A stretch of 64,000 nt of DNA, taken from positions 286,854-350,853 of the forward strand of contig JBBIRK010000002.1 in assembly GCA_037441845.1 (NCBI GenBank), in the 5' to 3' direction. Under the pieces are notes generated by a model. It worked only from the letters and a program-made list of their open reading frames with translations. It ran no database searches and had not been told where the DNA came from. The DNA is from Candidatus Zixiibacteriota bacterium. Its GTDB lineage: Bacteria > Zixibacteria > MSB-5A5 > UBA10806 > 4484-95. This document shows, one piece after another, positions 38,792 through 54,115 of this stretch. Both the position numbers and the translations under genes were made by a program. Each line of letters opens with the position of its first letter. Position 1 is the stretch's first letter.

Positions 38792-39430
38792 GTGCTGGAA
38801 GTCAACTATCTGCTTTTGACTTTAAGGACTGATAGACAAGTTAAGTTGGGAACCTCTCCCCTGTCGGTTTTTATATCTTCGGCCTATCAAAAAGAATTCG
38901 GTCAGATTTCGCATACGCTTTCCGGCGGAAGCTACCCGTTGTTGCAATATAAAGTGATCAGGGGGTCTCCTTTGATTGTGGCGATCAACGAGGGGCGGGA
39001 TTTATTGTGGAAAATCTACGATGATCTCGACAGCATCGATTGCAAAGGCGAATTCGTCATACTCGAAAAGCGCATAATCGAGAAAAAGGCGATGCTGGGT
39101 CCCACGGAGAGACGATTGAAATACCGCTTTTTGACTCCCTGGCTTACGATAACCGAGGCGGAATTGGCCAAGCAAGGCGGAACGGCATCGTTGGAGGAGG
39201 CGTTATTGCCGGTAATCGAAAGCAATCTTCGGGGGCTGTCGCGCAATTTCCACATTCCACTGGAGCAGCCGATAAGCGCGGGTTTCCATCTGCGGAGCGA
39301 GCATATCGTCCAGAAAGAATCGGGAATTATGGGGTTCCTCGGGACTTTTTACATCAACTACGAGATTCCGCAGTTTCTGGGTTTGGGCCGCGGCGTAAGC
39401 CGGGGATTCGGAACAGTCAAGCAAAGTTAA
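38792..39430 (+). CDS. Cas6-like RAMP endoribonuclease homolog (solo, no array)
   Basis: 212 aa; C-terminal glycine-rich loop GLGRGVSRGFG matches the Cas6 GhGxxxxxGhG signature; beta-strand N-terminus with His41. Assignment is motif-based only. Confidence 0.4.
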   Translation: MLEVNYLLLTLRTDRQVKLGTSPLSVFISSAYQKEFGQISHTLSGGSYPLLQYKVIRGSPLIVAINEGRDLLWKIYDDLDSIDCKGEFVILEKRIIEKKAMLGPTERRLKYRFLTPWLTITEAELAKQGGTASLEEALLPVIESNLRGLSRNFHIPLEQPISAGFHLRSEHIVQKESGIMGFLGTFYINYEIPQFLGLGRGVSRGFGTVKQS

Positions 39431-41399: not shown

Positions 41400-41867
41400 T
41401 TACTTACCGAGTAAAGTCCGGGTGTAATTGAGCAGTCCGCCGGATTGGATTATTTTGCCGATCGGCTCCGGGATTGATTCGAAGCGGATAGCTCCTCCTC
41501 GACGCTGGATTTCATTTTTAACGAAATCGAGTTCGATCTCTTCGTGGTTTTTTAATCCGGCCGAGGCGATGTCACATTCCACCGGCGTTATCCCCACGGA
41601 GACGAGGATTCTATAAAACAGCGGAGGAATCCGTGAGGCGACGAGGGCAAACACATTGTTTTCTTTAAGGGCTGCGGCCATTGCCTCTCCCCTGTCCAGG
41701 TACAGGGCGAATGGCAAAAAGTCGTGATAGTCGTCGATAACCAAGGCAATCGGAGGTTGCGGCCCACTTCTTTCCCTGATAATTGATTGGAAGAGATCTT
41801 GGGGCTCGCCGGCAAGCGAGAAATCTTTGTCCGCGAAAAGAACGGACGCTTTCAAATTCCGAATCAA
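41400..41867 (-). CDS. LeuD-like aconitase swivel-domain protein, active-site motif degenerate
   Basis: Colinear with LeuD (VFALVASRIPPLFYRILVSVGITPVEC; C-terminal GGLLNYTR) but GCGSSREHA is replaced by IDDYHDFLP. Confidence 0.6.
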   Translation of the reverse strand: MIRNLKASVLFADKDFSLAGEPQDLFQSIIRERSGPQPPIALVIDDYHDFLPFALYLDRGEAMAAALKENNVFALVASRIPPLFYRILVSVGITPVECDIASAGLKNHEEIELDFVKNEIQRRGGAIRFESIPEPIGKIIQSGGLLNYTRTLLGK

Positions 41868-43450
41868 AGCAAGTATTTCCTCGGGTCGGTGACGGCGCCA
41901 TCGACCGCCGAGGCTGCGGCGGTGGCGGCCGAAGTAACGTATATTTCATTTACGCTGTCGCCGCAGAAGGAGGTCGCGACCACCCGTTCGGCGTCACCGG
42001 TCGGCCACTCGCTACGACTGCAGCCGGGACTGGATACCACGCAGCCCGATTCGATAAATGACCGGATAAATCCCTTTTCGACCGCCTCGAGATAGGTTTT
42101 TCGAGATCCCGGAACGATTATGACCTGAACGTCCCGGCTGATATGTCTTCCCCGCAAAATCGCGGCGGCCAGAGCAAAATCATCGAGGGAACCACCGTGG
42201 CAGCCGCCGATGATTACGGTATCTATTTTTCGCCCGGCGAATTCCTCGGCTGCTTTGATTTTGGGTTTCGAACTTTCCCTCCCCTTTTCCCGACTCGCCA
42301 CCAAGGGCGTCAAATAGCCTATATTGATTTCCATTTCGTCGGCGTATCGCGCATCCGGGTCGGCATTCAATGGGGTTAATTTTTGCCGGTAATACTTGCG
42401 CAGGTTTTTCCAGGAGATTTCGTCTAAATGCACACTGACAGCCGCCGCGGCCGGTTTGAAAACGGGACCGGCCAGTGTCAATCTGGAGAATAAGGACAAG
42501 GTCGAGACGACATCTCCGAATATTTCGATCGCTTTTCCGGCGACGACATGATGGAACAGATCATGTTCGAGTTTTAGGGCGATATCGGCGGCGGAAAGGC
42601 CACGCGGGATTTTGCCGGTGAGCACGACTTTGACGGTCGGTGGGATTTTATACCAAATTCTTCCAATGGCCCATATGGAGGCCAATTCGAGAGCGGCGGC
42701 CGGCAAACCCACAGCTCCGATTCCGCCGCAGGAGGATACATAGGCGTTCGAGCCGAATACCAGGTCGCCCGGTTTGGCCAGCCCCTGTTCGCAGACAATT
42801 TGGTGAGGGACCCCCGAGCCGCAATCGAAAAAATTTCCGATGCCCTGTTTGCGAGCCCAATCGCGCAGTGATTTGGGCGTGACATGATCATCGACGGCAA
42901 TGGGGGAAATTCGCTGATCGAGGACGGCTACGATTTTATTGTTATCCCAGATTCTGGCCGCGCCGATTTTCTTGAAATGGCCGAGCACGGTCGTGATTTC
43001 GGCGCCGCAGGTAACCAGATCGGGCGTTAATTCGACGGTATCCCCCTCTTCGACGGATTTCAGACCGGCTTTGCGGGCGATAATTTTTTGGATGAGGGTT
43101 TCTTTGCGGGAATTGCGTGATCGCCGCGGGATATCCAACAGCGGCAATTCAAGTTGCCTGAATTTCAATTGTTGGGGTTTGGATTTGATGTTGTATTTGA
43201 TGCGCCATTGCCGGAACGCCGGGCCGGTGATTTCCAGTTCGGCGCCTGCCAAGCGGTCGTTGCCGTATCGTTCCCAGAGGTCGAGGATGGTTTCCCGGGA
43301 ATATTTCGGCTGGCTGAAGGCGGGAATTCCTTTTTTGCTGCGCCAGTAGGCGACCAGCCTACCGGGGACGCCGAAGAACTCGCCGATTTTCCTGTCAGTG
43401 CGGTATTTTTTTTGAAGCTCTAAAAGCTCGTGCTTTTTGGGTATTTTCAC
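41864..43450 (-). CDS. LeuC/aconitase-large-subunit-like protein with N-terminal basic HTH-like extension; catalytic residues lost
   Basis: GSGVPHQIVCEQGLAKPGDLVFGSNAYV (aligns to GxGIxHQ...GADSHT with D/S/H lost); IIGGCHGG in place of IGSCTN; PGCSRS in place of PGCGPC; first ~110 aa resemble a basic helix-turn-helix (IGEFFGVPGRLVAYWRSKKGIP). Confidence 0.6.
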   Translation of the reverse strand: MKIPKKHELLELQKKYRTDRKIGEFFGVPGRLVAYWRSKKGIPAFSQPKYSRETILDLWERYGNDRLAGAELEITGPAFRQWRIKYNIKSKPQQLKFRQLELPLLDIPRRSRNSRKETLIQKIIARKAGLKSVEEGDTVELTPDLVTCGAEITTVLGHFKKIGAARIWDNNKIVAVLDQRISPIAVDDHVTPKSLRDWARKQGIGNFFDCGSGVPHQIVCEQGLAKPGDLVFGSNAYVSSCGGIGAVGLPAAALELASIWAIGRIWYKIPPTVKVVLTGKIPRGLSAADIALKLEHDLFHHVVAGKAIEIFGDVVSTLSLFSRLTLAGPVFKPAAAAVSVHLDEISWKNLRKYYRQKLTPLNADPDARYADEMEINIGYLTPLVASREKGRESSKPKIKAAEEFAGRKIDTVIIGGCHGGSLDDFALAAAILRGRHISRDVQVIIVPGSRKTYLEAVEKGFIRSFIESGCVVSSPGCSRSEWPTGDAERVVATSFCGDSVNEIYVTSAATAAASAVDGAVTDPRKYLL

Positions 43451-43938
43451 TTTTTCAAAATTTTGACAAAGTGTTTTTTCAATGAATCGTAAATTTCCTC
43501 AAGCGCGAACGATTGAACTTTCGTTTTGCCGATTACGGGCATGAAATTGGTGTCTCCAAGGAAACGCGGAACGACATGAATGTGAAGATGCTCCTTTATG
43601 CTCGAACCGGCGACCTCGCCGATATTGATGCCGATATTGAGGCCATCGGCGGGCATGGCGGCGAAAAGCAATTTATTTGCCAGGATCATCAATTCGAACA
43701 TTTCGGCCTGTTCTTCTTTGGTCAGGCTTTCGAGCTTGGCTTTATGCGCATTCGGAGCGATCATAAGATGGCCGCTGTTATAAGGGTATTTATTGAGGAT
43801 GATGAACGAATGTCGTCCCCGGTAAAGAATGAGATTTTTGCGATCATCTTTTTGCCTGAGCCTGCTGCAGAAGATGCATTTTTTTTCGGGTTTGCCCTTG
43901 ATATATACAGCGCGCCACGGCGCCCAAAGCTCGGCCAT
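43447..43938 (-). CDS. HIT family protein (histidine triad nucleotide hydrolase/transferase)
   Basis: CIFC N-terminus, HLHIHVVPR histidine triad. Confidence 0.85.
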   Translation of the reverse strand: MAELWAPWRAVYIKGKPEKKCIFCSRLRQKDDRKNLILYRGRHSFIILNKYPYNSGHLMIAPNAHKAKLESLTKEEQAEMFELMILANKLLFAAMPADGLNIGINIGEVAGSSIKEHLHIHVVPRFLGDTNFMPVIGKTKVQSFALEEIYDSLKKHFVKILKK

Positions 43939-44092: not shown

Positions 44093-46195
44093 TCAGGCGC
44101 CGAGCTCGACGAGATGGTCGGCGTAGCTGTCGAGCCGGTTGCCGGAGGTAAGAAGCAATATCTGCCTTCCCGTCGAGAGCTGTTTCAGGATTTTCATGGT
44201 TTTGTCGAGACGCTGGGGATCGAGACATTCGAACGGCTCATCGAGGATAAGCGGAGCTTTGGCCTGATTGGCCATGATTTCGGTGAGCGCCAGCCTGGCG
44301 GTCAAATAGACTTGATCGGCGGTGGCGCGGGAAAGTTCGCTTTCAGGATCGACGTAATCGTTTTTTTGTTTGGAGAAGACCTTGAATTTAAGCGACGCCC
44401 TGTCGAAACGAACACTGTCGTAGCGGCCGTCGGTCATCGCCGCCAGCAATTCGGATGTGCGGTTTTCCAATAATTCGAGGGTCGAAATCATGATGTTTTG
44501 GCGGGCGATTTCAACGCATTCCTTGGTGAGTCCCAAGATGGCGAGTTCCTCGACATATTTCATTTTGCGCAGGGTCAATTCTTCTTTGCGTTCGAGATAG
44601 CTTGCCAGAAGCTCCGCGCCGCCTTCGGCGGTTTCGAGTTTGCGACGTAAGACGGCGATTTCGTTCTCGAGAGCCGATTTTTGTTCGGAGGTTTGGTCGA
44701 CCACATGCTTAAGTCGGTTGATTTCAGCCTGATCGAATTGCTTCCCTTGGGAGATTTTTATCGCCTCTTTGATCTCGCCCTCTCTGAGTCGCAATTGGCG
44801 GCATCTGTTTTCGAGCGTTTCCAGATCGGATTCGCCGAGCGCCGATTTTTGCAGTTCTTTTTCGTGACGCAATTGATTTTCGAGCTCATCCCGTTTCCAG
44901 GCGATCTGGCGGATTTGTTCGGCGCTGTTTATGTGATATTTGGACAGCAAAGCCTTCAGCTCGGCGGTTTGGTCATCGTATTCCTTTTTGCTTTCAGCCA
45001 GCCGATTCGATTTTTGTGTCAACTGGCCTTGTAGAAAAGACCTCAGCTGGAAGAATCTCGAAAATGAAAAGACGGTTATCATGAGAAAGGCAACGGCGGC
45101 TCCGCCGAAATAAAGGTGGCGGCCGGTAAAATGGAGCAGATAATCGGCCACGGCGAAACCCGATGCGCCGAGTGCGCAGATCGCCCAGAGCAATAGCGGG
45201 CCGATTTTTCGATTTCGTTGAAGCTCATGTTCGGCCTGGACCGCCTCTTTTTCCAGTTCTCTCAGTTTCGGCCGTAGATATTTGAGATTGGATTCGATTT
45301 CTTCGATGCGTTCGCGGTCTTCCGGGGAGACTCTGGTCAGTTCGGACAATTGTTTTTCGATTTCGGAGATTTTGCCGGTGACGGATTTGGCCATTTCGAG
45401 TTTGTTGGATATTTCGTCGAGCTCGCGTCCCACCTCGACCAGTTCGCTCAGTGATTTTTCCTGCTCGGTCATCTGATCGAGCGTCTGCTTTTTGTTGGTG
45501 TAGTCCTCGATTATATTGGCATAGGCCGTTTCCACCTGAGCCAGCGAGTTGCGATAGGTTTTCAGATTGGCGATGTCGCGCTTGAGGTTTTCGATATTGT
45601 AATCGATTTCGCTCTGGCTTTTTTCGAGGCGTTTCAGAAATCCCGAATCCGCGCCGGTGATGTTCTCTATGCGATCGTCTATTTTTACCTGAACGGAAGA
45701 GGCCGCCAGATCCTGTTGGCCGCCGGTCACCAGTGATTCCAGCTTATCGCGGATCGCCTCGAGTGAATCGTCTATGCGGGCTATTTCCCCTTGTTTTACG
45801 CAAGCGGTAGCCCGGAACAGTTCGGCCGATGGGAAGCCCACGGCGCCGGAAATCATTTCGAAAATTTTATGCGAATCGTCGATGGTCAAGTTGAGGCCGT
45901 CGCTTTTGAGGACGGAAGCGCCGGTGCCCAGGTTTTTTTCTACGATGGCGGAAAATCCGGCGGTCGATAATTCGGCTTTCAGCAAAGGCACATCGGAACC
46001 GGACCAGTTTTTCAGAGCCGCCGACTCGTTATCGATTGCTCCGGGTTTGCCATAGAGCAAAGTGGAGATAGCGGCGACGATCGTGCTCTTGCCGGCCTCA
46101 TTGGGCCCTTTTATGACATTGATTCCATCGCCCAGATCGCAGTGGAATCGTTTGAACCGTCCGAAATTCTCGATTGTAAGTTCGTTTATTTTCAT
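44093..46195 (-). CDS. SbcC/Rad50-like AAA ATPase (YhaN-like) with long coiled coil and two central TM helices
   Basis: Walker A GPNEAGKST; coiled coil; hydrophobic pair LLLWAICALGASGFAVADYLL / AAVAFLMITVFSF; Walker B LILDEP; signature LSRAT rather than LSGGQ; H-loop His absent. Confidence 0.75.
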   Translation of the reverse strand: MKINELTIENFGRFKRFHCDLGDGINVIKGPNEAGKSTIVAAISTLLYGKPGAIDNESAALKNWSGSDVPLLKAELSTAGFSAIVEKNLGTGASVLKSDGLNLTIDDSHKIFEMISGAVGFPSAELFRATACVKQGEIARIDDSLEAIRDKLESLVTGGQQDLAASSVQVKIDDRIENITGADSGFLKRLEKSQSEIDYNIENLKRDIANLKTYRNSLAQVETAYANIIEDYTNKKQTLDQMTEQEKSLSELVEVGRELDEISNKLEMAKSVTGKISEIEKQLSELTRVSPEDRERIEEIESNLKYLRPKLRELEKEAVQAEHELQRNRKIGPLLLWAICALGASGFAVADYLLHFTGRHLYFGGAAVAFLMITVFSFSRFFQLRSFLQGQLTQKSNRLAESKKEYDDQTAELKALLSKYHINSAEQIRQIAWKRDELENQLRHEKELQKSALGESDLETLENRCRQLRLREGEIKEAIKISQGKQFDQAEINRLKHVVDQTSEQKSALENEIAVLRRKLETAEGGAELLASYLERKEELTLRKMKYVEELAILGLTKECVEIARQNIMISTLELLENRTSELLAAMTDGRYDSVRFDRASLKFKVFSKQKNDYVDPESELSRATADQVYLTARLALTEIMANQAKAPLILDEPFECLDPQRLDKTMKILKQLSTGRQILLLTSGNRLDSYADHLVELGA

Positions 46196-46196
46196 G

Positions 46197-47315
46197 TCAC
46201 CAGATTTTTTGCCCGGCCAAAAGCGAGTAGCCGATTTTAATTGACTTTTCGAGACGCATTTTTTCCTGCGCGTTGGCTTGTTTGAGCCTGGCGGTCATGA
46301 AACGGAGATATTGACCAAGCAGGGTTTTTTCGGCAACTTTCACTTCACTGACGTTATCCGGGAAGACGATCATATCGTCGATGATATCGAGGTAAAGAAA
46401 ATCGTTTTCGAGGAGGCGATAGACGGTCTCCGGTTCGAGTTCAGCCTCGAACAGCGCCAGACCTTTAAGTTTCAGACGAAGCAAGACGTCGGAACCGGCT
46501 TGAGCTTTGAGTTTGGCATATAGGTCGTTGTTATTGGTAATATCCTTGGCGTCATAAACGAGATTTTTCCACTCGAGGCGGCCGATCGGAACCTGATTTT
46601 GGCGGATTGACCTCGGGGCGACTATTTCGGTCACCACGATGAATCCGGCGCGGTCATCCTCGAAAGAGATCCGCTCGGGCGAACCGCAATGGGCGATGCG
46701 GATGTCCGGCAGAGCGTAATCGTGGAAAGAGGTCTTCCCGCCCAGGGCGATATAATCGAAGCGGCCGAGCAAAGCCCTGAACTGTTCGGTGAGCTCGTTC
46801 AAGAAATCGGCTTTGGGCAAGCAACCGAGCAGTAGATTGAATCCGGTATCCGGCAACGGGCTGACGCTTCGCACCAATTCAAGAAAATCGTGTTCGGTCG
46901 TAAGCGGCGCGCCATAGACCATGCAATTTTTTTCGGGCAGTGCAATGGAAGGTCGCTTTTTATCGAGCAAAATATGGATATTACCTGGCGGCTGCGGCCC
47001 CGAGAAAGTCCGCCAAAAGGCGTTATCATTGGCGCCGTCGCGTATGCCCGGAAGTATGACGACCGGCATCGGCGCCAGCGATGCCAATCCGCCGGCGGCG
47101 AATCTTTGCAAATTATTGGAGACATCCACGGTGTCGAACAGGTTGCCGGCTATCAAGAGCAGATCGGCTTTCTCGTGGCGGGCATATTCGATAATGTTGC
47201 AAAAGGCGTTTTTCAAGGCGGCCCTTATTTTGTCGCCGGCCAATTTCAGCCCGACAAAAGAGGCCCCCAGCCGGATATCGGAAGTGTGAACGATCTTCAT
47301 AGGAAACGCTCGCAC
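46197..47315 (-). CDS. SbcD/Mre11-like metallophosphoesterase homolog with substituted metal ligands (YhaO-like, predicted inactive)
   Basis: HTSDIRLG (versus HTSDxHLG), AGNLFD (versus GDxFD), LPGIRD (versus GNHD). Alternative start at MKIV (47300). Confidence 0.7.
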   Translation of the reverse strand: MRAFPMKIVHTSDIRLGASFVGLKLAGDKIRAALKNAFCNIIEYARHEKADLLLIAGNLFDTVDVSNNLQRFAAGGLASLAPMPVVILPGIRDGANDNAFWRTFSGPQPPGNIHILLDKKRPSIALPEKNCMVYGAPLTTEHDFLELVRSVSPLPDTGFNLLLGCLPKADFLNELTEQFRALLGRFDYIALGGKTSFHDYALPDIRIAHCGSPERISFEDDRAGFIVVTEIVAPRSIRQNQVPIGRLEWKNLVYDAKDITNNNDLYAKLKAQAGSDVLLRLKLKGLALFEAELEPETVYRLLENDFLYLDIIDDMIVFPDNVSEVKVAEKTLLGQYLRFMTARLKQANAQEKMRLEKSIKIGYSLLAGQKIW

Positions 47316-50521: not shown

Positions 50522-50614
50522 CGGAAGGGACAGGAATCGAACCTGCCAAAACCGGGATCACCGGTTTCCAACGATTTTGAAGACCGCGGGGGCCACCAGA
50601 CCCCATCCGCTTCC
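50522..50614 (-). tRNA. selC: tRNA-Sec (selC), anticodon UCA
   Basis: Reverse complement reads GGAAGCGGATGGGGTCTGGTGGCCCCCGCGGTCTTCAAAATCGTTGGAAACCGGTGATCCCGGTTTTGGCAGGTTCGATTCCTGTCCCTTCCG. Colinear with E. coli selC from memory: GGAAG..GGTG.., CTTCAAA loop giving anticodon TCA, long variable arm, GGCAGGTTCGAnTCCTGT, ..CTTCCG. 93 nt. Confidence 0.8.
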
Positions 50615-50668: not shown

Positions 50669-51391
50669 TCAAATCGATTTTCCGGGAAGATTCAGCGGGT
50701 TATCGACGGCAAGCATCTCTTTTTGAAAAAACGCCTCGCCGTATTTGACGCCGATCATGTAGCCGTAGCGGCGGTTCTGAATCTCCATGAAATCGAAAAT
50801 GTTTCTTGCCGGCGGATAAACCTCCCGCTGACCGGGCTTTTCCTCGAATTGACTTTTATAGCAGGCGACCGCCTCGCATTTACGTTGAAATTGAGCCGTG
50901 ATATCGATCACGAAAGTGGGTCTTATTTCCTGAAAGCTGCAGGAATAAATGATCTTGCGCGGTCGGTGAGGTTCGTTTCCGATAGGTAGTTTGCCGAGAC
51001 CCGCCAAGAAACAGCCGCGGTAACCTATCAGCCCGGCTGCGGTATGATCGGGGTGACGCTGAGTGCCATAGGGCAGAATCACCAATTGGGGGCGAGTGCG
51101 GCAGATGATGCGGGCAACGGCAAGGGCGTTTTCCTGAGAGTCGAACAGACCGGCATCGGGCAGATTGAGATTTTGGCGGAAGGCCAGACCCATAACCGCG
51201 GAAGCGGCATCGGCCTCTTTGCTGCGGGTTTCGGAATCGCCGCGGCTTCCCGATTCGCCGGCCGTCAGATCGAGGATTCCCACTTTATAGCCGAGATCCA
51301 CTAATTTGATGATGGTGCCGCCGCTGACTATCTCGGTGTCGTCGCGGTGGGCGGCTATGGCGAGCACGTCGAGCTGAGGCGGATTATTCAT
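50669..51391 (-). CDS. bshB: PIG-L/LmbE family deacetylase (bacillithiol BshB-like)
   Basis: AHRDDTEI ... HPDH motifs. Confidence 0.75.
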   Translation of the reverse strand: MNNPPQLDVLAIAAHRDDTEIVSGGTIIKLVDLGYKVGILDLTAGESGSRGDSETRSKEADAASAVMGLAFRQNLNLPDAGLFDSQENALAVARIICRTRPQLVILPYGTQRHPDHTAAGLIGYRGCFLAGLGKLPIGNEPHRPRKIIYSCSFQEIRPTFVIDITAQFQRKCEAVACYKSQFEEKPGQREVYPPARNIFDFMEIQNRRYGYMIGVKYGEAFFQKEMLAVDNPLNLPGKSI

Positions 51392-52505
51392 TCATGATTT
51401 CCTCGTAATAGTTGAGATATTTTTGGATTACATCGCCGATCCTATATTTTTCGAGCACGAGCTGCCGGGCTGCTTGGGAAAACGATTTTGCCATATCGGG
51501 ACTTTCGAGGATCATCATCGATTTTTCGGCCATCGCTTGGATGTCCCTCACCGGCGCAAGGAATCCGGTGACGCCGTCGGCGATCAGCTCGGGCAAGCCC
51601 CCGATTTCGCTAGCGACCACGGGAACGCCGCAGCTCATGGCCTCGAGGGCGGCCAGGCCGAAAGCCTCGGAGCCGGAAGGCAAAAGGAAAAGATCGGCTA
51701 TCGGCAGAATAACGTGAACGCGGTCCTGATTGCCCAGAAAAGTCACGAGGTCGGAAAGACCGAGTTCGCGCACGAGACTCATGATATTGCCGATATCGGG
51801 CCCATCGCCGACAAGCAACAGGCGGGATGGAATCCGTTTGCGCACGATGTCGAAAATCCGAACGACATCGATAGCATTTTTAACCGGGCGGTAATTGGAC
51901 ATATGCACGATGATTTTTTCGCCGGGCTTGGCGAAACGGCTGCGGGCGCATTCCGAAGATTTGGGTTGGAAACGATCTGTATCGACGAAATTCGGAATTA
52001 CCCGGATATCTTTTTTCAGATTGAACACGGTTTTGGTTTCATCGTGAAGATACCGGGATACCGCGGTGAGACCATCGGAAGCCTCGAGCGAAAATCTGGT
52101 TATCGAGTAGAACGATCGGTCCTGACCTATCAGGGTGATATCGGTGCCGTGCAAGGTGGTTACGATTTTGGGAGCATCGGCGCCCAGAACCTTGGCGGCC
52201 AGGAATGCGGCCGAGGCGTGGGGAATGGCGTAATGGGCGTGCAGGATATCGAATCGGTGCCGTTGAGATTCATCGGCCAGACGCGCGGCCAGTGTTTCGG
52301 TATAGGGGGGGTATTTGAACAGCGGGTAGTTAGTGATATCGATTTCGTGAAATATGAAATTGGCCTCGAACGCGCTGAGCCGAAAAGGAAGTTCATAAGA
52401 AAAGAAATGAACCTCACAGCCTCTTTTTGAGAGTCCGATACCGAGTTCGGAGGCGACCACCCCCGAACCACCTCTTACCGGATAACAGATAATGCCGACC
52501 TTCAT
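51384..52505 (-). CDS. bshA: GT4 glycosyltransferase, N-acetyl-glucosaminyl L-malate synthase BshA-like
   Basis: [22 protein letters not shown] ... C-terminal GT4 E-x7-E region; colinear with BshA. Confidence 0.75.
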
Positions 52506-54115
52506 AAGTATATCGCCGCGTGTGCGGCATGTTCAATATCGAGATTTTCGGCTATGGTGTCAAATATAGATCGTCCGTATTTGCTGACATAATAGACAGG
52601 CGAAACGAGGCGTTCCTGGAATTGGTTATCGGGGAATAGGTAGTCGTGAGCCTTTTTCAATTGAGCGATGATTTCATTGTGCCTTTTTTTATTGGACGAT
52701 TTGAGTTTTCTGGCGAGCTCATGGGATTCGAAATCGATTTTTTTGCGGAAATTGAGAAGCAGATTGGCGCTTTCGGCATTGCCTGCTTGTTGCTGCGCCG
52801 CCAGATTTTCGAGATTGCGGCAATAGTCCGAAGTCAGGAATGTGAGATTATCGGCGGACTCGGCCGGGAACAGACGTTCGATCACCTTTCCGCCCAGGGC
52901 GTAGGGATCGGCTTTCAGTTCGGTTGGTTCAATATCATATTTTTGCAAAATCCGGGCGATGTGCGGCTCTATCAAGGTGGCACCGGGTCGGGGAAAAATT
53001 ATCGGGTGAGGGATACCGAAAAGCTCGAACCAGGGATCGATTTGCGCGAAATAAGCCAATTCGGAGGGTCCCACGATTTGCGCGACGACCGGGAAAGCGT
53101 GGCACTGGGCGATGGGTCGAAGCAGAACGTTGGGGGAAAACGATTCCGGGTGTGCAGATATCAAATCTTGCAATTCCGCGGCAGACCAGCGGTGGTCGGC
53201 GCCGTCGGCGATGAAATTATCGCCCTCGGTGAGGATATTGAATCGTTGGGGGGAGTGATAAAATAAACTCAGCTGACGAGGGGTCTTGTGAACCTGCGCG
53301 TGATAACCGGCGGAGACCAGAGTCTGCGATCTTTTCTCGTATATTTCGAAAGAACGCCTATGTTCTTTTAAATCGGCTGCGAAAATTGCGGCGAAATGGC
53401 TTTTCATGCCCGGTGCGTTCGGATCGACGAGAACGATGCCCCATTTGCCGAGGAATTTCATGAACAGCTTGCCGAACGCTGCAGTCAGCTTCTCCCCCGG
53501 TTCGTAGCAATCGCGGATATTTTCAAGAAGCGCCGGTTTGAATTCCGAATCGGGAAGTTCGGCGGTCAGGGCATCGATGAATTCGACGATCCGGTCGTCG
53601 AGGATAATCGAATCGAGGGGCGATTTGGGCAGAATCGTGGATGGGTTATATTCGAATTTGATCGAGGAGCCGTTTCTTTCGGGAAAAGCGGTCGAGTTGA
53701 TTTCGGCGAAATCGTGATCATCGCTGGCTATCCAAAAACAAGGAATCACCTTTCTTTTAAGCAAAGACTCGTAATGCCGGGCGAGCTTAGCGGCGGCGAG
53801 CGCTTTATAGATGATATACATGGGGCTAAGAAGCATTCCCGGCTGCTGGCCTGCGAAGACGCATAGCGTCCGCGTATCAGCCAAAGATTCAATGGCGGCC
53901 ATGGTTTCGCGGCCGGCCTCATACTCGGCGTTTTGACGAATCAGAATATCGCGAAGGGCGCTGCGCGGGTATGCCCGGGCATCGATCTCCGAGACCGTCG
54001 AAAAAATCGATCGAGGCTGGTCGTATGCAGTCGCAAAGAGCTCTTTCAGCCGCCCGGCCTTGTAATCGGCGTAAAGTTTAGAGGGCGGCGGGAATTCGAG
54101 GCATAAGGTTCGCAT
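52502..54115 (-). CDS. bshC: bacillithiol biosynthesis cysteine-adding enzyme BshC
   Basis: 537 aa; FAGQQPGMLLSPMYIIYKALAAAKLA...VIPCFWIASDDHDFAEIN matches the BshC hallmark TGQQ.GL..GPLYTIYK...FWIAGEDHDFDE. Confidence 0.8.
   Translation of the reverse strand: MRTLCLEFPPPSKLYADYKAGRLKELFATAYDQPRSIFSTVSEIDARAYPRSALRDILIRQNAEYEAGRETMAAIESLADTRTLCVFAGQQPGMLLSPMYIIYKALAAAKLARHYESLLKRKVIPCFWIASDDHDFAEINSTAFPERNGSSIKFEYNPSTILPKSPLDSIILDDRIVEFIDALTAELPDSEFKPALLENIRDCYEPGEKLTAAFGKLFMKFLGKWGIVLVDPNAPGMKSHFAAIFAADLKEHRRSFEIYEKRSQTLVSAGYHAQVHKTPRQLSLFYHSPQRFNILTEGDNFIADGADHRWSAAELQDLISAHPESFSPNVLLRPIAQCHAFPVVAQIVGPSELAYFAQIDPWFELFGIPHPIIFPRPGATLIEPHIARILQKYDIEPTELKADPYALGGKVIERLFPAESADNLTFLTSDYCRNLENLAAQQQAGNAESANLLLNFRKKIDFESHELARKLKSSNKKRHNEIIAQLKKAHDYLFPDNQFQERLVSPVYYVSKYGRSIFDTIAENLDIEHAAHAAIYL

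Follow-up and report, generated by a model that had tools for sequence, protein, structure and literature searches.

The gene pair

The window, a stretch of 64,000 nucleotides from a Candidatus Zixiibacteriota bacterium (assembly GCA_037441845.1, contig JBBIRK010000002.1, positions 286,854 to 350,853), carries two adjacent genes that encode a Rad50-fold ATPase of the ATP-binding cassette (ABC) type and a partner protein with the fold of the SbcD/Mre11 nucleases. Our reading, held with moderate confidence, is that the pair is a form of the SbcEF (YhaN/YhaO) complex that has been passed down vertically throughout a clade, whose nuclease subunit has turned into a pseudo-enzyme, and that would capture or tether DNA at the membrane without cutting it. 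The initial annotation is borne out in its observations and in the main line of its interpretation, but some features that it took for local degeneracy are characters of the family. The two genes are as follows:

44093..46195, minus strand: ATPase gene, encoding a YhaN/SbcE-type Rad50-fold ABC ATPase of 700 amino acids (aa) (from the list of open reading frames)
46197..47300, minus strand: partner gene, encoding an SbcD/Mre11-fold pseudo-nuclease of 367 aa from the ATG at 47300 (from the reading frame, the fold and the starts of homologues)

The initial annotation gave the partner 372 aa. That is the length of the open reading frame when it is read from a GTG at 47315 (46197..47315, minus strand), but the true start is probably the ATG at 47300, because all of the approximately 45 full-length homologues (357–379 aa) begin at MKIVHTSD, or more generally at MKI(V/I)H. 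The partner gene lies directly upstream of the ATPase gene, both here and in all related loci, and a single nucleotide separates its stop codon from the ATPase ATG, a tight junction that recurs in every related locus. Signals for a promoter or terminator inside the pair do not rise above background, and translational coupling of the two genes is strongly supported. No second copy of Mre11 or Rad50 was found by tblastn within the 64 kb.

Loss of the metal site in the partner

The partner retains the full SbcD architecture of phosphoesterase core, capping domain and C-terminal helices. Its AlphaFold model (predicted local distance difference test, pLDDT, 86.8; predicted template modelling score, pTM, 0.80) comprises a core from residue 1 to about 230, a capping domain to about 313, a floppy, low-confidence linker at 315–324, and two helices at 327–341 and 344–361. 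The best Foldseek matches are Escherichia coli SbcD, Thermotoga maritima Mre11 and Pyrococcus furiosus Mre11, all with probability 1.0, as are the matches to Mre11 of Schizosaccharomyces pombe and human. Sequence models respond far less: the Pfam Metallophos model is barely reached (22.8 against a cut-off of 21.5, over residues 6–90 of the 372-aa frame), TIGR00619 (sbcd) is not (42.9 against 77.65), the partner falls far below the cut-offs of the SbcD and Mre11 equivalog models, and Pfam DNA_pol_E_B gives a weak match (E = 0.043).

In canonical members of the family, five phosphoesterase motifs provide the Asp, His and Asn ligands of two Mn2+ ions as well as the catalytic His. Their eight residues are DHDNHHHH in order of sequence, where the partner has DRNIRCGT and keeps one of the eight, the first Asp. 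The substitutions fall in all five motifs:

47265..47288, minus strand: former motif I, HTSDIRLG, Asp kept and His replaced by Arg (aligned to HTSDWHLG of T. maritima Mre11)
47133..47153, minus strand: former motif II, IAGNLFD, bridging Asp replaced by Asn, GD to GN (from the alignments)
47037..47054, minus strand: former motif III, LPGIRD, GNHD changed to GIRD (from the alignments)
46812..46835, minus strand: former motif IV, LLLGCLPK, His replaced by Cys (from the family alignment)
46722..46748, minus strand: former motif V, ALGGKTSFH, GHxH changed to GGKT (aligned to ALGHIHSF of T. maritima Mre11 and LGHLHH of Staphylococcus aureus SbcD)

Misalignment of the motifs can be ruled out as the source of this pattern. 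The register was checked in three ways: the single sequence and a profile of the clade were each aligned to solved SbcD/Mre11 chains, and 213 family proteins were aligned with one another. All three place the substitutions opposite the canonical ligands. The initial annotation had regarded every metal motif as substituted, which is correct for the motifs but overlooks the Asp that survives in the first, and the nuclease-dead scaffold that it predicted from them is supported.

The alignment of 213 comprises the full-length family members from a word-indexed search combined with an exhaustive one (2180 representatives at E <= 1e-3; 517 at E <= 1e-10). Retention of ligands among them is bimodal, with 142 canonical proteins (6–8 of 8 kept), 60 dead ones (0–2 of 8) and just 11 intermediates (3–5 of 8). 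Among the canonical relatives the ligand columns are the most conserved of all, within the lowest 2–16 % of column entropy. In the dead clade, five of the eight lie between the 56th and 96th percentiles, and the remaining three have become fixed again in new states (Asp8, Asn53 and Gly188). Position 10, in motif I, is His in 134 of the 142 canonical relatives and may be R, H, N, Q, Y or G in the dead clade; the bridging position of motif II is Asp in 141 of 142 canonical proteins and Asn in 52 of 60 dead ones. The two changed columns of motif III stand at the 92nd and 73rd entropy percentiles in the dead clade. The motif IV His, present in 142/142 canonical relatives, is replaced by Cys160 in 31 of the 60 dead proteins, and the first His of GHxH in motif V is Gly in 55 of 60.

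Positions 8 and 53 behave as a pair. Both are acidic in 141/142 canonical proteins, whereas a single acidic residue is found in 59/60 dead ones, as Asp/Asn in the main dead subclade and as Asn/Asp in a deeper subclade. The pattern is consistent with charge compensation, in which one carboxylate of the pair was neutralised once the metal had been lost.

Three positions are refixed and not random, and Cys160 is common, which could be taken to mean that the site has been remodelled (around Asp8, Asn53, and Arg or Cys, for example) for a different chemistry or for a single-metal phosphoesterase. We regard such an enzyme as very unlikely, given that the other five ligand positions vary freely, that the deeper subclade shows the swapped Asn8/Asp53 pattern, that the residues invariant in the clade include no other conserved group of His, Asp or Glu, and that newly constrained positions lie mostly in the capping domain and linker, away from the old site. 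Because the residues that hold the two Mn2+ ions are gone, the alignments strongly support the view that the partner cannot be a metallophosphoesterase and is a pseudo-enzyme.

Distribution and selection

The same pair is present in related genomes, as the initial annotation had suggested looking for. On a neighbour-joining tree the window partner belongs to a single clade of 54 proteins, 52 of them dead and two intermediate, and all 16 loci that were recovered from named genomes come from Zixibacteria metagenome-assembled genomes (MAGs) or automatically labelled bins. Across the whole family the minimum number of state changes is five, so the ligands have been lost at least five times.

Both genes are under strong purifying selection. 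Ratios of nonsynonymous to synonymous substitution rates (dN/dS), computed between the window and a relative of 89 % identity (L010), are 0.074 for the partner and 0.088 for the ATPase, against 0.039–0.161 for seven neighbouring housekeeping genes. Decay into pseudogenes is ruled out by these ratios and by conservation across the clade, and 'degenerate', the term that was first applied to the pair, does not suit genes with dN/dS of 0.07–0.09.

Constraint is strongest at the C-terminus of the partner, where dN/dS falls to 0.013 (residues 301–367):

46200..46361, minus strand: linker and C-terminal helix pair of the partner, residues ~314–367, where the protein is most constrained and is predicted to bind the ATPase (from the model, dN/dS and entropy)

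The capping domain is more constrained in the dead clade than in canonical family members; the linker and helix pair show the largest increase, with the motif P-x-N-V-S-E-V-K-V-x-E-K-T-x-L-G-Q-Y. The entropy of the linker drops from 3.19 in canonical relatives to 1.01 in the dead clade. There is thus strong support for a shift of constraint in the partner, away from the active site and towards the linker and helix pair at its C-terminus.

Two observations on the public record belong here. Members of the dead clade (P0004–P0047) are labelled 'exonuclease SbcD', 'DNA repair exonuclease SbcCD nuclease subunit' or 'metallophosphoesterase', names that are probably wrong because the metal ligands are missing. 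In one Zixibacteria MAG (L020, 5136..7400) the ATPase frame ends after 526 aa while similarity runs on downstream as far as the HIT gene; this stop is most likely an indel in the assembly and not a genuine truncation.

Fold and ATP site of the ATPase

The N-terminus of the ATPase matches Pfam AAA_27 ('YhaN AAA', COG4717) with 50.4 bits against a cut-off of 22, besides AAA_23 and AAA_15, whereas the match to the NCBIfam Rad50 models is partial and weak (84 bits, cut-off 1000). The heads of P. furiosus Rad50 are found with a profile built from 30 family members (E = 4.9e-33). In the AlphaFold model (pLDDT 81.6) a head split between residues 1–140 and 590–700 is joined to antiparallel helical arms at 141–325 and 361–587, a coiled coil of about 180 residues per arm. 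The top Foldseek match is Chaetomium thermophilum Rad50 (7zr1_C, 5.5e-17), followed by Smc5/6, MukB, SbcC and LmuB. Together with the JGI name 'uncharacterized protein YhaN' of three homologues (P0096, P0098 and P0099), these matches bear out the placing of the two folds in the neighbourhood of YhaN/YhaO in the initial annotation. The features of the ATPase, its apex apart, are these:

46082..46108, minus strand: Walker A, GPNEAGKST (G30, E33, G35 and K36 invariant in the ATPase family alignment)
44582..44635, minus strand: conserved stretch of coiled coil, ETAEGGAELLASYLERKE, on the C-terminal arm close to the head, where the partner may dock (near-invariant in the clade)
44312..44335, minus strand: signature LSRATADQ, family form LSxGTxDQ / LSxGTxxQ (aligned to Rad50 LSGGE; S622 invariant)
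44219..44254, minus strand: Walker B PLILDEP, followed by the D-loop FECLD (D652 and D659 invariant)
44138..44164, minus strand: H-loop region QILLLTSGN, His replaced by Gly (aligned to Rad50 QVILVSHDE)

Walker A (GPNEAGKS) and Walker B (LILDEP) are thus intact, as first described. The LSRAT signature and the absent H-loop His are likewise in register with Rad50, but a signature other than LSGGQ is a family trait: distant YhaN-like proteins have LSxGT, and the window differs from them by Gly to Ala. Losses in the ATP site of the window ATPase are limited to that Gly and the H-loop His. At the H-loop the window has TSGN and the Zixibacteria clade as a whole has TS[GD][ND] or TS[HQR]DH, while TCH or SH is usual there among distant YhaN-like proteins. 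Its Walker B carries the canonical Asp-Glu, where most relatives have Asp-Asp (ILDDPF). Since the Walker A Lys, Walker B Asp, signature Ser and D-loop Asp are invariant, and Walker B ends in Asp-Glu, the ATPase is not obviously dead for hydrolysis, a state that the initial annotation had thought possible. Loss of the H-loop His strongly slows hydrolysis in ABC ATPases, and because this residue is absent here a slow, switch-like ATPase is plausible.

Near the heads, two segments of the coiled coil, LESLVTGG and the segment listed above, are near-invariant in the clade and absent from the outgroups (P0125–P0142). In Mre11-Rad50 a pair of Mre11 helices grips the base of the Rad50 coiled coil. By analogy, the LESLVTGG / ETAEGGAELLASY base is a candidate docking site for the helix pair and linker of the partner, and the conserved coiled-coil segments and partner C-terminus look like a subunit interface that has been maintained, and may even have been reinforced.

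The apical hydrophobic hairpin

Two hydrophobic segments lie in the middle of the coiled coil, where the initial annotation had noticed them. Hydropathy is given as the Kyte-Doolittle mean over 19 residues (KD19), for which the usual threshold is 1.6:

45140..45205, minus strand: apical hydrophobic helix 1, residues 331–352 (KD19 1.92; helix at 334–353 in the model)
45044..45115, minus strand: apical hydrophobic helix 2, residues 361–384 (KD19 1.82; helix in the model starts at 361)

The AlphaFold model places the two helices at the tip of the coiled coil, in the position that the zinc hook occupies in Rad50; the ATPase sequence itself contains no CxxC hook (Cys at 19, 132, 339, 464, 560 and 657). 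KD19 reaches 1.6 or more in the central region in 41 of 43 clade members and in 38 of 57 other YhaN-like proteins, and outside this region it never exceeds 1.25 in the 43. SbcE has a unique central domain, conserved in all SbcE homologues, that is hydrophobic in its first half, completely insoluble and without CxxC (PMC2811018). Because it is shared with that domain and with other YhaN-like proteins, the hairpin is a YhaN/SbcE family trait; it and the deviant signature are ancestral, and not the local degeneration for which they had been taken.

The hairpin is likely, to judge from its sequence, to insert into the membrane. The main rival to our reading keeps the same dead-nuclease complex but makes the hairpin a module for apex-to-apex dimerisation, in place of a zinc hook or an SMC (structural maintenance of chromosomes) hinge, in a complex that is soluble and associated with the nucleoid. 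We consider this arrangement doubtful. Both segments exceed the KD19 threshold, and their insertion-energy sums over 19 residues come to about 1–2 where the median for the protein is 22, on an approximate scale. The region combines the lowest column identity of the protein (0.39–0.44, against 0.53–0.69 elsewhere) with the highest hydrophobicity, as is expected of helices that face lipid rather than a protein interface, and its C-terminal flank has a net charge of +3.75.

Several points nevertheless weigh against insertion, and some of them favour dimerisation. The N-terminal flank is net negative (-1.9); helix 2 is rich in Gly and Ala and only moderately hydrophobic on clade average (mean KD +0.87); and hydropathy is the sole ground on which insertion is predicted. 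One canonical relative (L029, 7050..8429) has an ATPase of only 459 aa with an H-loop His (FSCH) and no hydrophobic apex; the hairpin must therefore have been gained or lost within the family, in which an apex module is evidently dispensable. A YFP (yellow fluorescent protein) fusion of Bacillus subtilis SbcE forms discrete foci on nucleoids or at the poles and was not described as a membrane protein, its central domain being called merely hydrophobic and insoluble (PMC2811018).

Nearest relatives and independent losses

The nearest canonical relatives of the dead clade, P0047 (L004) and P0048 (L008), have the ligands DHD(T/S)HHHH, ATPases of 712 and 701 aa respectively, the hairpin, and TCH and TCD in the H-loop. 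Because these canonical sisters share the hairpin architecture, the ancestor of the pair must have been an active nuclease within the same membrane-hairpin framework.

A second dead lineage arose independently, in an unrelated neighbourhood, and its intermediates include the ligand string DHNDCHHM. In L028 (6001..8767) the partner reads DRNYLSGS and the ATPase, of 567 aa, has lost the signature and has VIDG as its Walker B, while in L006 (6001..8923), whose partner P0054 is intermediate, an ATPase of 620 aa has lost the Walker B acid (VLDC); both keep the hairpin. What sets the Zixibacteria clade apart is that its nuclease is dead while its ATP site is preserved.

The decay of ATPase motifs in this second lineage suggests that a purely structural role is within reach of the family and, with the loss of the nuclease and at least five origins of the dead state, it raises the possibility that the complex has left DNA metabolism altogether, as a membrane-anchored, ATP-driven coiled-coil machine that acts on the membrane, the envelope or another macromolecule. 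We think this unlikely for the Zixibacteria clade, in which the ATP-site residues K36, S622, D652 and D659 are invariant and the heads keep a Rad50-like fold. The sole experimental data on the family, moreover, concern DNA repair and transformation (PMC2811018).

Relation to characterised complexes

By domain content, gene order, type of apex and type of signature, the pair belongs to the YhaN/YhaO (SbcEF) branch. In B. subtilis, as in the window, the nuclease-like gene stands immediately upstream of that for the SMC-like ATPase, SbcE (YhaN), which is implicated in double-strand-break repair and transformation and forms polar foci in competent cells (PMC2811018). Shared with the window pair are AAA_27, the deviant signature, the lack of a CxxC hook and a hydrophobic central domain between two heptad arms. 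The window pair differs in the loss of the H-loop His and in having no yhaM downstream. B. subtilis YhaN has a predicted mass of 106 kDa, compared with 700 aa for the window ATPase, and YhaO was described as highly similar to SbcD (PMC2811018). The decisive difference is that the window partner is without seven of the eight metal ligands, of which the canonical family members examined retain 7–8.

With SbcCD and Mre11-Rad50 the pair has in common both folds, the gene order, the domain order of the partner and an ABC head with Walker A and B, Q-loop and D-loop. It departs from them in having a hydrophobic apex for the zinc hook, in its shorter coiled coils and missing di-metal site, and in scores that fall far short of the model cut-offs. 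Since the SbcD/Mre11 fold is present but its defining catalytic motifs are absent, the partner, on its sequence, should not be filed as an SbcD nuclease.

Loss of catalysis in this fold has precedents elsewhere. Aravind and Koonin reportedly recognised in 1998 that the B subunits of eukaryotic DNA polymerases alpha, delta and epsilon carry an inactivated calcineurin-like phosphoesterase domain. Like the partner, these subunits have a Mre11-type phosphoesterase fold, have lost the metal ligands and serve as scaffolds; they are not closely related to it, and the complex and its cellular role differ. In the literature that could be searched on YhaN/YhaO, SbcE/SbcF, COG4717/AAA_27, inactive Mre11/SbcD and membrane-anchored Rad50-like proteins, a nuclease-dead YhaO/SbcF clade did not turn up; the 2009 paper on SbcE and the paper on the evolution of Lamassu make no mention of it. 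We therefore regard this nuclease-dead variant of the poorly understood SbcEF complex as new.

Gene order and surroundings of the pair

Twenty loci, with identity as low as 35 %, keep the order rlmD – (DUF885) – partner – ATPase – (HIT – aconitase-like). Neighbours in the window are housekeeping genes, encoding RlmD, a DUF885 protein, an ATP-adenylyltransferase-like HIT protein, an isopropylmalate-dehydratase-like pair and the products of bshA/B/C, and GC content is flat and unremarkable around the pair. The locus is core, vertically inherited DNA.

This setting bears on a further reading, that of an anti-phage defence or other mobile conflict system: the pair would be derived from SbcCD in the manner of Lamassu and have its effector elsewhere; an association with defence islands had been raised by the initial annotation. 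There is precedent for it in Lamassu, whose LmuB/LmuC is likewise an SMC-like complex derived from SbcCD with an SbcD-derived subunit that has no nuclease activity, LmuC being proposed to descend from the SbcD C-terminal domain after removal of the nuclease (PMC12663957). LmuB is among the fold matches of the ATPase, and PADLOC returns weak matches of the ATPase to LmuB, AriA, GajA and PtuA. These matches, however, are all but confined to the P-loop region at the N-terminus, and none is returned for the partner. Lamassu has deleted the nuclease domain, retained the SbcD C-terminal domain alone, recruited the effector LmuA and resides in defence islands, whereas the window pair keeps the full SbcD fold, has no adjacent effector gene and occupies the same housekeeping neighbourhood across the 20 loci, with unremarkable GC content and selection comparable to that on housekeeping genes. 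No defence-island association was found, a defence island is rejected on synteny and the PADLOC results, and a defence function is in our estimation highly improbable.

Several features of the surroundings are recorded here in their own right. Downstream of the pair, and conserved in most loci, is an overlapping trio (41400..43938, minus strand) that encodes the ATP-adenylyltransferase-like HIT protein and two dehydratase-like subunits, the large one resembling isopropylmalate dehydratase/homoaconitase and the small one weakly LeuD-like; the large subunit has an N-terminal extension of about 115 aa (43106..43450) with no Pfam match. Between rlmD and bshB is a tRNA-Sec gene (50523..50614, minus strand; Rfam RF01852, 66.6 bits against a gathering score of 47), which implies selenoprotein synthesis in the organism. 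The contiguous bshC-bshA-bshB genes (50669..54115, minus strand), encoding a BshC Rossmann-like domain, a GT4 glycosyltransferase and a PIG-L deacetylase and conserved in L001 and L010, point to bacillithiol biosynthesis in this Zixibacteria genome. An orphan Cas6b-family protein (38792..39430, plus strand) is encoded between kdsA and the urocanase gene, matching Cas6b_N with 46.5 and Cas6b_C with 72.5 bits (Pfam, both above cut-off), and its gene has the same position in L010. Tandem Repeats Finder detected no CRISPR repeat array in the whole 64 kb, and no further cas genes turned up in the parts of the window that were examined.

Proposed function and implications

Mre11-Rad50-type complexes are defined by an ATP-driven DNA clamp coupled to a nuclease, and their nuclease-independent roles, in tethering and signalling, are known mostly from engineered point mutants. 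Because the partner has lost nearly all of its metal ligands and yet is strongly conserved, the complex most likely holds or tethers its substrate. In the mechanism that we propose, the partner would still dimerise and, by analogy with Mre11-Rad50, bind the ATPase at the base of its coiled coil, and would serve the (ATPase)2(partner)2 complex as its scaffold or gate. The hairpin at the apex would sit in the cytoplasmic membrane with both ends inside, so that the heads may reach about 25 nm into the cytoplasm. Binding of ATP would close the heads, with hydrolysis probably slow in the absence of the H-loop His, and DNA, probably as ends or duplex, would be captured and held at the membrane unprocessed. 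Such a complex would be a natural counterpart of nuclease-independent tethering by Mre11-Rad50.

A broader proposal, which we offer tentatively and rate as possible rather than probable, is that the whole family of short, membrane-hairpin YhaN/YhaO-type complexes has as its core task the nuclease-independent, ATP-gated capture or tethering of DNA at the membrane, with the nuclease an accessory that has been discarded at least five times. If this were true, the Zixibacteria clade would constitute a natural separation-of-function mutant on the scale of a phylum, in which a new conserved interface between partner and ATPase has taken the place of catalysis.

For annotation, the practical consequence is that 'exonuclease SbcD' and 'DNA repair exonuclease' are very probably wrong as names for the dead clade. 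Here evolution itself has made the nuclease-dead mutant, which is strongly selected in the Zixibacteria clade and has similar counterparts in at least four other lineages of the family. Dead and active sister complexes of the same architecture offer a clean comparative system, and their existence points to a nuclease-independent function of the little-studied SbcEF branch.

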